A stretch of 64,000 bases of DNA from Nitrospirota bacterium (GTDB taxonomy: Bacteria; Nitrospirota; UBA9217): contig CAVUCU010000004.1 in NCBI GenBank assembly GCA_963740085.1, positions 448,001 through 512,000 of the forward strand, in the 5' to 3' direction. Numbering within the stretch: position 1 is the first letter of the stretch; every line of letters starts with the position of its first letter. Made by a program: the position numbers and the translations under genes. Below, one piece after another: positions 32,546-36,476 of this stretch. The notes under the pieces are model-generated. The model saw only the letters and a program-made list of their open reading frames with translations. It did not search any database and was not told where the DNA came from.

Positions 32546-33527
32546 ATGTTGAAAATAGCGCAGATCGGTGTCGGTTATTGGGGGCCGAATCTTTTAAGAA
32601 ACCTCGTGGCGAACAAAAAGTGCAAGGTATCAACAGTGGTGGATCTGTCGCCTGAACGGAGGGACTATGTGCGGGGCCTCTATCCTGCGGTAAAGGTCTC
32701 TGACAACGTTGAAGAGGTGATCAATGATCCTGAGATCGAGGCAGTTGATAATTGCAACTCCGGTGGCGACCCACTTTGATCTGGCTATGCGGGCGCTTTC
32801 TGCAGGGAAACACATATTTATCGAAAAGCCGATGGCACGGAGCGTAGCCGAAGTAGATGAGATCGGCAAGCTGGCCGCTCAGAAGAACCGTGTCGCCATG
32901 GTAGGGCACACCTTTCTCTTTAATAGTGCCGTGCGGTACGTTAAAAAAATGATCGATTCGGGTGAACTCGGAGATATCCGATATATTTACAGTCAGCGGT
33001 TGAATCTCGGCAAGATCAGGTCTGATGTCGATGCCTTATGGAATTTGGCCCCTCACGACATAAGCATCATTCAATACTGGCTTGGGGACCCGAAGCCGCT
33101 CTCTGTGGTGAGGATAGGCGCCGACTATGTGCAGGAAAAGATCGATGACGTGGTTTTCATGAACATCATGTATCCGAAGAAGATCATGGCCAATATCCAC
33201 GTAAGCTGGCTTGATCCTCAGAAGATCCGCTCGATGGTCGTCATCGGATCAAAAAAAATGGTGGTATATGATGACATGGCAGACGAAAAGATCGCCATCT
33301 ACGACAAAGGGATAGACCGGAAGGCACCGTCTGGTAGTAGTAAACAATCGCCCGCATTTGATCACCGGTCGGGGGATGTTTTGCTTCCGAAGATCGATTT
33401 CAAGGAACCCTTGAAGGTTGAACTGGATCATTTTATTGACTGTATACAGAACGGAACGAAGTGCTTGACCGGTGTGGACCATGCCAGGACCGTGGTAGAG
33501 ATCCTGGCAACCGCCAACGTGCAGTAA
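32546..33527 (+). CDS. Second Gfo/Idh/MocA family oxidoreductase; frameshift near 32748
   Basis: IGVGYWGPN, HIFIEKP, WNLAPHD, VSWLDP. Confidence 0.88.
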
Positions 33528-33576: not shown

Positions 33577-34595
33577 ATGATGAACAATAAAAAAAAATTG
33601 AAAGTAGCTTTGGTCTGTACCCGCGGCGGACATTTTGAGCAAATGACCAATCTCTCCGAATTTTATGGATGCTATGATCATTTCTGGATAACCAACAAAA
33701 ATAAGCAAACAGAGAACCAATTGAAGGATGAGAGAGTACACTATATAGAGCTGGCTCACTTTAAAAAGCCCTGGACCTACTTATTCCAGCTCGCGCCGGT
33801 ACTGAAAATATTCGCGAAAGAAAAGCCAACGCATATGCTCTCGACCGGATCGGGCAGGACGGCCCTGGTTCCTTTTATTATTTCGCGGCTTTTTAAGATA
33901 AAGTTCATTTATATTGATACCTTTTCCCGGGTGCGCGGACATTCAAAGTTCGGGACGTTTTTGCTCAAAATGAAAAGCAGGATCTATACACAATGGGAAG
34001 ATCCGCAAAATGATAGAGCGATCTACATCGGACCAATATTCAAACAGCAGGAAAACCGCACTAAATGCAGTGACTCAGAATATGTATTTGTTACCGTGGG
34101 GACACGAGATGAACCGTTCACGCGATTGATAAAAGGGGTCGAAGATCTGGTAAAAAAAGGCATTAATAAAAGAAAAAGTAATCATACAGGCAGGGCATAC
34201 AAAATACAGGTCGGACTGTAGTCGAAGTATTTCGATTTCTGTCGTCCTGAAAAGATAGACGAATTGATCTTAAATGCAAAGTATGTCATTACCCAGGAGA
34301 GTGCGGGCATTGGTACCCAATGCCTGAAGTATAGTACGAAGTTTGTAGTTATGCCCAGAGACTATCAATATCGGAGAACTTCCCGCAAAAAGCGATATGA
34401 AAGAGGATCTGCAATGACAAGCTTGAAGAATTGGGTTATACAAAGGTTGTAAAAAATGCAAGCGAGTTGGAACAGGCGATCATAAATATAGATACTTGTA
34501 AAACAGGATATGAGTTCAACAATCAATTAGCGATCACGAAGCTGCATAGGGCTGTGGGTGACGAGTCAGTGACTAAAGTGCCTAAAGTGAGCTAA
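33577..34595 (+). CDS. Fused Alg14-like/Alg13-like (PssD/PssE, CpsF/CpsG type) glycosyltransferase; frameshifts in the 3' half
   Basis: VCTRGGHFEQ, STGSG, YIDTFSR, YTQW followed in frame by VFVTVGT..PFTRL; later VITQESAG, VVMPR. Confidence 0.8.
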
Positions 34596-34653
34596 AGTTT
34601 AGAGAAACAAGTAAAGTGCACTAGAGTGCCTAAAGTTTAAAGTGACTAAAGTG
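34569..34653 (+). repeat. Short-repeat array (7x TAAAGT), left arm around the four-helix-bundle gene
   Basis: TAAAGT at 34574, 34583, 34593, 34612, 34631, 34638 and 34647. Confidence 0.85.
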
Positions 34654-34826
34654 GGAAGTCGGGAGAGAATGCCGAGTAATAAGGAATTTGCAAAGGAACT
34701 TGAAAAGAGGACAAGGGCATTTGCTGTCAGCATCATTCGATTATCGGTAAAATTACCAAACAGTGCTGAAGGCAAGGTTATCAGGAATCAGATCACAAAA
34801 TCCGGAACATCTATTGGCGCCAATTA

Positions 34827-35100
34827 CTCGCCCCGTTAGATAAAATGCATTATGTATATATTTTACAGAGTTTGATAGATAATAAATTCTACGTTGGCTA
34901 TTCGCAAGATTTAAAACGGAGAATTGAAAAACACAATAGTGGACAAGTACCGTCTACTAAAGGGAGAACCCCATTAAAATTAGTTTATTATGAAGCATGT
35001 TTGAATATAACTGATGCTATACATAGAGAAAAATATTTGAAAACTAGCTGGGGGAAGAGATATATTAAAAACCGCATGAAAAAATATCTAACGGGGTAAA
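34827..35100 (+). mobile_element. Minimal insertion element: GIY-YIG nuclease ORF between terminal inverted repeats
   Basis: ccccgttagata (34831-34842) / tatctaacgggg (35085-35096) is a perfect 12-bp inverted repeat; it splits the host gene at its conserved ANY-x-E-A-N motif. Confidence 0.8.
34845..35099 (+). CDS. Stand-alone GIY-YIG nuclease family protein (84 aa)
   Basis: YVYILQS...FYVGYSQDLKRRIEKHN...STK.R.PLKLVYYE...AIHREKYLK. Confidence 0.93.
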   Translation: MHYVYILQSLIDNKFYVGYSQDLKRRIEKHNSGQVPSTKGRTPLKLVYYEACLNITDAIHREKYLKTSWGKRYIKNRMKKYLTG

Positions 35101-35294
35101 AATCTAATCGATCTCGTAGCAAAGCGGATTTTAGAAATAAGATAAGGATTTGCGAAAGCGAAGCCAGCGAAACACAATACTGGTTGGAAGTCATCATTGA
35201 TGCAAATATGCTGACTCGGGATAAAGTCGCAGCGGAACACAAGGAATGCAGTGAGTTGCTCGCAATCTTTACCTCAATTGGTAAAAAACACATT

Positions 35295-35352
35295 CACTTT
35301 AGAAGGCACTTGAGTCACTTTAGCGCACTTTAGCTCACTTTAGTGCACTTAA
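35295..35352 (-). repeat. Short-repeat array (CACTTTAG), right arm, inverted relative to 34569-34653
   Basis: ACTTTA at 35296, 35317, 35327 and 35337; 35327-35343 is the exact reverse complement of 34582-34598. Confidence 0.85.
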
Positions 35353-35371
35353 ATATACCCCAGGAGGAAGA

Positions 35372-36476
35372 ATGAATATTCAACTTGTTGATCTGAAGGC
35401 GCAATATGAAACGATCAAAAATGAAATCGATCCAGTAATAAAAGAGGTAGTATCGGAAACAGCATTTATCGGGGGACAGCACGTCGCGAAGTTTGAAGAA
35501 GCTTTTGCAAAGTTCTGCGGCGTGAAGCATTGTGTCGGCGTCGGCAATGGTACGGATGCTTTATTTATCGCATTAAAAACGCTCGGTATCGGCGCGGGTG
35601 ACGAGGTTATCACTGTTGCGAACAGCTTCATCGCAACATCTGAGTCGATAACGCAGACGGGCGCAAAGGTTGTATTTGTCGACATCGATCCGAAAACTTA
35701 TAACATCGATGTGAATAAGATCGAAGAAAAGATCACATCGCGGACAAAGGCCATCGTTCCTGTCCATCTCTACGGGCAGCCTGCTGATATGGACCCGATC
35801 CTTGCCCTTGCGAAGAAGCATAATTTAAGAATTATGGAGGATTGCGCTCAGGCCCATGGGGCACTTTATAAAGGCAGAATTATCGGCTCGATAGGTGACA
35901 TGGCATGTTTCAGCTTTTACCCCGGCAAGAACCTTGGTGCTTATGGCGATGCCGGGGCCATCGTAACCAGCGATGAGACCCTGGCGAAAAAAGCACGCAT
36001 GTTCGCCAATCACGGACGCATAGGAAAGTACGACCATGAAATAGAAGGCATCAACAGCCGCCTGGACGGACTCCAGGCAGCCATACTTGGAGGTCAAGTT
36101 GAGGCATCTTGATGCATGGTCCGAAGCACGAAGAAAGAACGCATACCTGTATAATGAACAATTGAAGGGAACGGATCTGGTCACGCCGGTCGAAATTGCA
36201 AATGTGAAAGCAGTCTATCATCTTTATGTGGTGCGTATAAAAAAGGAATTGCGCCAGAAACTTCAAGACCATTTGAAATCCAAAGGGATAGCCACGGGTA
36301 TCCATTACCCGATAGCGCTGCCTAATTTGAAGGCTTATTCCTACTTACAACATACAGCAAATGATTATCCTGAAGCCACAAAAGCGTCTCAGGAAATACT
36401 GTCTCTGCCGATGTATCCGGAGCTTAAAGAAGGTCAGATTCAGTTCATTGTTCGGGAAATAAAAAATGTGGTATAG
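35372..36476 (+). CDS. DegT/DnrJ family aminotransferase (FdtB/WbpE-like); frameshift near 36090
   Basis: [62 protein letters not shown]. Confidence 0.92.

Follow-up and report, generated by a model that had tools for sequence, protein, structure and literature searches.

A small GIY-YIG nuclease gene between paired terminal arms interrupts a four-helix-bundle protein gene in a Nitrospirota bacterium and recurs at the same codon position in other genomes

The window analysed in this study, a 64,000-nucleotide stretch of a Nitrospirota genome, contains a four-helix-bundle (4HB) gene of the PF05635 / TIGR02436 family ('23S rRNA IVS protein') that is split after its GANY codons by an element of about 270 bp. 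The N-terminal half of this host gene occupies positions 34669-34827 on the plus strand, with an alternative start at an upstream GTG (34642). It ends at the Y codon of GANY, covers positions 7-45 of the 106 positions of the profile and is 96% identical by tblastn to the intact homologue P0122. The C-terminal half, with its stop codon, lies at 35100-35333 on the same strand, covers profile positions 50-104, is 94-95% identical to intact homologues and has no start codon available. The first-pass annotation of this DNA had proposed that the host frame breaks at GANY and resumes after the insert, and the two profile matches bear this out. It had also stated that deletion of 34831-35099 restores 131 codons. 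The count is right, as the removal joins 54 and 77 host codons, but the junction is not the native one: intact homologues at 94-95% identity have GANY-REA-NRSRSK, and the window has GANY-S, then the insert, then KS-NRSRSK. The neighbouring genes are polysaccharide-synthesis genes, and we found no transposase nearby, as had been claimed earlier.

Arrays of an 8-10-nt repeat, detected by repeat search, lie on both sides of the host 4HB gene, with CTAAAGTG-type repeats in a left array at 34568-34653 and CACTTTAG-type repeats, inverted relative to the left array, in a right array at 35304-35353; the arrays mark an outer cassette that carries the host gene. In other metagenome contigs the two arrays are joined over fillers of 4-37 nt with no 4HB gene between them (joints from 34588, 34593 or 34652 to 35315-35326), and thus the array arms also occur without the 4HB gene. 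Two neighbouring genes occur as two overlapping frames each, one for a GFO/IDH/MocA oxidoreductase (within 32546-33527) and the other for a DegT-family aminotransferase (within 35372-36476; profile 3-234 and 232-359). The cause of these splits is either genuine frameshifting or indel errors in the assembly, and this bears on a one-base offset beside the element. The C-terminal host half of the window is one base short, and so out of register, when compared with a group of relatives whose insert, written TYR-CCC...GGG-T, is 288 nt long; this length is a multiple of three, and precise removal of the insert restores the host frame. Beside the right end of the element of the window is a run of five A (35098-35102). 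Since other frame-broken genes lie within 3 kb, an assembly indel in this run is possible at the one-base offset, and the details of the altered 12-nt patch described below may include an assembly error.

The ends of the element are a left arm, CCCCGTTAGATA, at 34831-34842 and a right arm, TATCTAACGGGG, at 35085-35096, which form the perfect 12-nt inverted repeat described in the first-pass annotation, with 242 nt between them. When up to one mismatch is allowed, the arm word occurs at two places in the 64 kb, namely the two arms, against 0.28 expected, and two or more occurrences were reached in 2 of 100 shuffles. The nuclease gene, 84 codons followed by TAA, runs from 34845 to 35099 on the plus strand and is the sole ORF between the arms. 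Its ATG is located 2 nt downstream of the left arm, and the right arm overlaps its last four codons, encoding YLTG, with the TAA directly after; both details had been read correctly before. The whole unit is therefore a single-domain GIY-YIG gene with paired arms. Within the element only 17 nt precede the ATG, which leaves no room for a promoter, and the gene thus probably relies on read-through from the host gene. In folds of a 311-nt region as single-stranded DNA, the pairing of the two arms was the sole stable feature of either strand, and the overall fold energy was ordinary (z -0.53 and +0.43 for the two strands). A search of 34300-35600 against Rfam with E values up to 1 gave no relevant match, either to a group I or group II intron or to a known IVS RNA, in agreement with the earlier statement that there is no room for an intron. 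The bases TCG at 34828-34830, between the last host-like base and the left arm, belong either to the outer end of the element or to altered target; TCG, TCA or TTA precedes the CCC core in relatives, and the joint of the empty alleles described below begins after 34827. The outer limits of the element are uncertain by a few bases (34828 to 35096-35108), and no single rule for them could be derived across the 4HB host subfamilies.

The protein matches PF01541 over residues 1-68 with 57.9 bits (cut-off 22.6, E 1.2e-15) and belongs to the GIY-YIG superfamily. Residues Y5, Y16, G18, R26, H30 and E50 are each conserved in 90% or more of 22 ungapped relatives, and Y5, Y16, R26, H30 and E50 are among those that we take to be the catalytic constellation of the two tyrosines of GIY and YIG, an arginine, a histidine or tyrosine, and a glutamate. 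Single-base codon differences within the family are synonymous in 4956 cases and non-synonymous in 2110, and third codon positions account for 10363 changes compared with 6416 and 4250 at the other positions. Judged by these substitutions, the nuclease ORF is intact and under purifying selection. Its best relative of solved structure is 1zg2, UPF0213 (E 4e-8), and in NCBIfam it has a sub-threshold match of 27 bits to TIGR01453 (cut-off 56).

Metagenome contigs provide the same locus without the insert. Four metagenome runs were compared with the stretch; no public run contained more than 0.13 of its sampled words. Two contigs from two studies, X1 (812 nt) and X3 (457 nt), match 34612-34827 with 4 differences in 216 nt and then jump to 35109 over the 12 letters AGGGAAGCCAAC, which encode R-E-A-N; the empty 4HB target at the insertion point is thus ...GGCGCCAATTAC/AGGGAAGCCAAC.... 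Past the joint X3 has 7 differences in 165 nt, and the X1 contig runs into the DegT gene. A third empty allele, X5, is more diverged. As X1 and X3 are the same locus lacking the insert, the element is present in one allele and absent from others at an orthologous site. Relative to the empty alleles the net insert is 269 nt after base 34827. In addition, TAAAAATCTAAT at 35097-35108 stands in place of AGGGAAGCCAAC; this patch differs from the empty alleles at about 6 of 12 positions, against flanks of about 98% identity. Its letters are similar to the [RK]-E-S codons that follow related elements in other 4HB hosts. The alignment of filled and empty sites that the first-pass annotation had suggested therefore agrees with its supposition that a few target bases are replaced on insertion. 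This possible sign of co-conversion consists of one 12-nt patch, on the 3' side only, in a single filled/empty pair.

Relatives of the nuclease are numerous, with 1380 of the 1381 candidates scored reaching an E value of 1e-3 or better. The best are 81-82% identical, and identities of 70-82% occur in records named Deltaproteobacteria, KSB1, Lutibacter and Parcubacteria. The source genome has one copy of the gene, and eight genomes of the same genus contain nothing above 41% identity to it. By this measure of homology the element is patchily spread over many phyla, with no close homologue in the genus. A set of 161 loci was assembled from 80 loci in species genomes (44-71% identity, at least 10 phyla), 80 in metagenomes and the window. 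Arms that score at least 9 and have a CCC...GGG core were present in 89 of the 161 loci, 78 of them non-identical, under a strict criterion by which some loci classed as lacking arms do carry them (for example, L059 and L162). This recurrence, together with the empty orthologous site, substantiates the view that the nuclease gene and its paired arms are a real unit. The first-pass annotation had asked whether GIY-YIG proteins ending in [YF]LTG always have the upstream repeat; paired arms are present in these 89 loci, and more distant homologues are without arms. Seven distant homologues without arms (L078, L099, L101, L106, L107, L109 and L113; 44-58% identity) are located immediately upstream of tRNA genes. 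An Rfam scan of 20 loci outside 4HB genes found no rRNA around the elements; its matches were tRNAs and a single group I intron. The intron (RF00028, 85 bits, L073:1306-1524) lies on the opposite strand about 80 nt downstream of the element in a Paceibacterota contig.

The arms, with their family-wide CCC core, covary. Among 74 distinct elements, 789 of the 888 cells of the 12-bp stem are Watson-Crick pairs, and compensatory pair types are found at stem positions 3, 6 and 8 (at position 3, TA 32, CG 20 and GC 8). Mismatches of the G-T type are about as frequent as those of the A-C type (17 vs 15), and hence there is no sign in these alignments of an RNA-only, one-strand constraint on the arms. 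Covariation of the arms by itself is no proof of pairing, because the same pattern arises when one protein reads both ends of a transposon.

The 4HB context is widespread and oriented. Pieces of 4HB genes occur within 400 nt of the nuclease gene in 58 of the 161 loci, a lower bound since the profile, which was run on translated flanks, was built mostly from GANY-type proteins, and 85 of 85 pieces are on the strand of the nuclease. In 34 loci the insertion point is N-[IY]^[AR]-E, with hosts that are just 30-50% identical. The other 4HB loci comprise 8 with the element at or before the N-terminal helix, 4 near profile position 36-40 and 2 of other kinds, as well as 10 in which only the distal C-terminal part of a 4HB gene follows, including the nested L129, L138 and L142; the remaining elements are outside recognisable 4HB genes. 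The arm sequence was considered as a guide to the target and was rejected in that role, as the same arm type is found at different sites. A second GANY-type 4HB gene in the source genome (contig C3:96660) has an identical left half-site, ggcgccaattac, and is empty, from which it follows that spread within the genome is not efficient. Some loci hold either two filled 4HB genes in tandem or a nuclease ORF nested with a gene-less arm pair (L054:296-925 and 1819-2448, L087:3421-4134, L129, L138 and L142). In the nested arrangement, a nuclease ORF without a recognisable left arm is followed directly by a gene-less arm pair, and both lie in one 4HB gene.

Within the sub-lineage with 288-nt inserts, third-position divergence is lower for the element than for the host gene in 13 of 15 pairs, the other two being equal within 0.01, and the identities of element and host correlate weakly (r 0.32). 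The lower divergence of the element would fit movement among hosts that had already diverged. Almost every filled locus retains intact host halves, whose differences are mostly synonymous (e.g. 37:9, 47:11 and 42:7); this reflects either recent moves or some retained function.

The first-pass annotation had also suggested a search for arm pairs with and without the ORF. The source genome was found to contain six further CCCCGTTA-type arm pairs without a gene, with spans of 30, 85, 94, 94, 97 and 106 nt, all of them intergenic and several right after a stop codon (G000 C1:1590683-1590776, C1:258453-258546, C3:115209-115238, C4:431920-432004, C5:493938-494043 and C7:36238-36334). Single arms were not informative: with up to one mismatch they gave 38 and 31 matches in the genome, below the 73-90 of shuffled sequence, and only pairs are meaningful. 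Likewise, 12-mers of the CCCNG[TC] type with a nearby complement numbered 27 against 22 in the control, with no clear excess apart from CCCCGTTA-type pairs. Inside the five longer pairs (85-106 nt), the sequences align neither with one another nor with the nuclease gene. We considered whether the gene-less pairs of the source genome are deletion derivatives of the element and rejected this, as their interiors cannot be aligned and their '...SLTG' endings are just the arm. The arm pair of L129, L138 and L142 is a different case; it keeps an ATG, a shortened frame and the last codons of the nuclease ORF, and from these remnants it looks like an internal-deletion derivative.

Three of the six gene-less pairs are flanked by identical 4-nt direct repeats (TTGA, TTGA and TTTA). 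In a set of 83 elements, the four bases just outside the CCC...GGG core form identical direct repeats in 6 (0.84 expected) and agree at 3 of 4 positions or better in 19 (8.5 expected), values that none of 2000 shuffles reached. An inverted extension beyond the core was not enriched (4 of 4 positions in 3 elements vs 5.65 expected; 3 of 4 or better in 26 vs 20.2, a value reached by 104 of 2000 shuffles). The direct repeats are hints of a 4-bp target duplication in some insertions, although some cases may be shared descent. The earlier statement that there is no obvious target duplication holds for the copy in the window, where we found none; across the family, direct repeats are enriched.

The closest published system is that of the Ssn nucleases. 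Chenal et al. (2025, Nat Commun, PMC11893778) describe SsnA as a 94-aa single-domain GIY-YIG enzyme that binds a hairpin repeat (NTS/SRM), cuts single-stranded DNA just upstream of the hairpin, ignores double-stranded DNA and RNA, and still works when the hairpin is given as two half-oligos. The same source reports that ssnA is often flanked by NTS hairpins, likens the NTS-ssnA-NTS arrangement to an insertion sequence and proposes that Ssn is domesticated in Neisseria. Like Ssn, the element has a single-domain GIY-YIG protein of fewer than 100 aa, with no DNA-binding domain, whose gene is bracketed by CCC...GGG inverted repeats. Unlike in Ssn, where complete short hairpins stand on each side, the element is one hairpin split around the gene; its 84-aa protein is shorter than the 93-95-aa NTS-flanked proteins and is without their KW.R.WK...NP.W.DL tail, and the element has a defined target within a protein-coding gene, of which an empty version is observed. 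The degenerate SRM motif published in PMC11893778 was found within 150 nt of the gene in 0 of 161 loci, and 3 times in 464,575 nt overall compared with 2 in a shuffle. The exact Neisseria-type NTS core, GTCATTCCCGCG-NNN-GCGGGAAT, occurs in 69 of 401 small genomes (0.5-1.8 Mb) of one class (G064-G462, the class of G062), with as many as 41 copies in one genome, and the reversed core was absent. These genomes, with loci L202-L205, L211 and L219, have 4-10 small GIY-YIG genes each, some of them flanked by NTS hairpins. The NTS-flanked proteins of L211 and L219 are 93-95 aa long and 36-39% identical to the nuclease of the window, and the L219 hairpin, GTCAT-CCCCGT-GAAG-ACGGGG-ATCCAG, has the same CCCCGT...ACGGGG stem core as the arms of the window. 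From this resemblance the arms look like one Ssn-type hairpin, with its CCCCGT core, split around the gene. A quick maximum-likelihood tree of 150 rows and 84 columns, for which the careful search was unfinished, groups 6 NTS-type rows in one clade (94%) and all 76 rows with split arms in the other clade of 140 rows (98%). By this tree the nuclease of the window is a sister of the NTS-associated nucleases and, as sampled, stands outside their clade.

Free-standing homing endonuclease genes of the GIY-YIG type, such as those of the phage T4 Seg proteins and the I-TevI / I-BmoI family, are a second point of comparison. With these the element shares a nuclease gene that is itself the mobile unit, a target in a conserved coding motif entered in fixed orientation, of which both filled and empty alleles are found, and possibly altered adjacent sequence, as in co-conversion. 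It differs from them in having no DNA-binding domain, intron or intein, in breaking its host gene, in its covarying terminal arms and gene-less derivatives, and in being chromosomal in many phyla, whereas homing genes are found in phage and organelle genomes. The IS200/IS605 elements, REP/RAYT systems and MITEs resemble the element in being tiny, in their DNA hairpins, in their scattered intergenic derivatives without a gene and possibly in a short target duplication. The element has terminal inverted repeats but no HUH/Y1, DDE, serine or tyrosine enzyme and hence no recognised transposase, and its two ends together form one hairpin, whereas theirs are subterminal at each end. Small GIY-YIG ORFs have been described in rRNA genes of CPR bacteria, within insertions that are neither group I nor group II introns, and that report (PMC11270868) places 23S_rRNA_IVP (4HB) ORFs in the same kind of places. 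No paper that connects GIY-YIG genes with both paired arms and 4HB genes turned up in our literature search. The first-pass annotation had regarded the unit as its best candidate for an undescribed system, which stands, as far as our literature search goes, for the combination of arms with a 4HB target but not for its surroundings, given what PMC11893778 and PMC11270868 say of the sister Ssn family and of GIY-YIG ORFs in CPR rRNA insertions. The element is a variant beside the Ssn nuclease/hairpin systems and the free-standing homing endonucleases. The first-pass reading of a tiny mobile element whose only gene is a nuclease is largely borne out, while its autonomy and movement by its own GIY-YIG enzyme are putative.

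Our preferred explanation, to which we give a probability of roughly 0.55, is that the unit is a minimal, selfish and site-specific mobile element that moves in a homing-like manner, with the nuclease cutting the arms and/or the empty target and host repair installing the unit. The nuclease gene would lie in the loop of one long-range hairpin or terminal inverted repeat, made of the 12-bp arms with their CCCYGT core, and the unit would be inserted in host orientation between the Y and R codons of GANY/REA (equivalent to NI/AEG in other subfamilies), breaking the 4HB gene. The enzyme may recognise its own paired arms and/or the empty 4HB target and cut beside them, after which host repair or replication could copy or join the unit into the break. 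A few flanking bases would travel with it and leave the 12-nt patch on the 3' side. GIY-YIG homing enzymes can cut at a distance from the insertion site, and a one-sided patch would fit cleavage a few bases to the 3' side of the insertion point, the copied sequence coming from a donor in another 4HB gene. Several observations count against a homing-like process. The genome has only one copy of the gene, and the identical half-site at C3:96660 is empty. Homing by pure gene conversion needs no arms and makes no duplication, yet direct 4-nt repeats are found in 6 of 83 elements. The host halves remain open with mostly synonymous differences, and a dead gene is not expected to stay so for long. 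By analogy, Ssn enzymes, which according to PMC11893778 do not cut double-stranded DNA, would be a poor fit with classical homing. The element may instead move by hairpin-guided single-strand transposition, a possible but rather doubtful alternative in which the arms pair on single-stranded DNA (at a replication fork, or during transformation or conjugation), an Ssn-like nuclease cuts at the foot of the stem, and host enzymes insert the freed or copied strand at a staggered break, which gives rise to a 4-bp duplication. Functionally this would be like IS200/IS605, with a hydrolytic GIY-YIG enzyme in place of the HUH transposase. It would explain why arm pairing is the sole stable feature of both strands, why the near-equal G-T and A-C mismatches point to constraint on both DNA strands or on the duplex, and why direct repeats are enriched; intergenic gene-less arm pairs of 30-106 nt in the source genome, the arm pair with a shortened ORF start in L129, L138 and L142, the many elements outside 4HB genes and the biochemistry of Ssn reported in PMC11893778 also fit. 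A hydrolytic nuclease alone cannot rejoin DNA, however, and the copy in the window is not flanked by a duplication. Element-borne ends or shared descent may account for some of the direct repeats (L136/L042 and the two TTGA copies), and the strong preference for one codon position, in one orientation, in diverged 4HB genes is more suggestive of a protein recognising its target.

The remaining explanations fare worse. It is unlikely that the unit is an Ssn-like nuclease gene, resident or domesticated and not currently mobile, whose stem has a regulatory or protective function, and that the 'empty' alleles arose by deletion between the arms. In favour of this, the gene is a single copy, the identical half-site elsewhere in the genome is unfilled, and domestication has been proposed for Ssn in Neisseria (PMC11893778). 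Deletion between the inverted arms, however, would not regenerate a 4HB gene that reads R-E-A-N perfectly and agrees with 111 of 120 intact homologues, the gene is missing from congeners yet 70-82% identical in other phyla, and 34 loci with diverged hosts are filled at this site. We consider it improbable, too, that the insert acts at the RNA level as an intervening sequence tolerated like those of 23S rRNA, its stem being cut out of the transcript by an RNase III-like activity or the transcript even being religated, so that the host 4HB gene would still work, or its two halves would work as a split protein. The intact host halves with their mostly synonymous differences would agree with such a process, as would the 288-nt inserts whose precise removal restores the frame. 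It is contradicted by the lack of an Rfam match, by the lack of an excess of G-U-type over A-C-type mismatches and by the missing start codon of the C-terminal host half, and since the element is less diverged than its hosts, recent moves can explain why these are intact. To our knowledge, bacteria do not splice such stems. An assembly chimera at this locus is very improbable; other frame breaks do lie within 3 kb, but the same architecture at the same codon is found in dozens of independent assemblies.

Beyond the preferred homing-like explanation, we tentatively put forward a broader idea, which is possible rather than probable: the unit may represent a new class of autonomous prokaryotic mobile elements, at about 270 bp the smallest known, in which a bare Ssn-type GIY-YIG nuclease serves as the 'transposase', reading the hairpin formed by its own ends on single-stranded DNA, with host repair doing the joining. 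The Ssn/NTS systems would then be domesticated or degenerate relatives. If the nuclease does mobilise its own hairpin-bounded gene, this would amount to DNA mobility without a recombinase, and the Ssn single-strand nucleases would gain a natural role as engines of selfish elements. The family would also offer a large natural set of nuclease, hairpin and target triples for tools acting on single-stranded DNA, and it would account for many interrupted genes annotated 'four helix bundle protein', and for isolated calls of 'GIY-YIG nuclease family protein', in genomes and MAGs.
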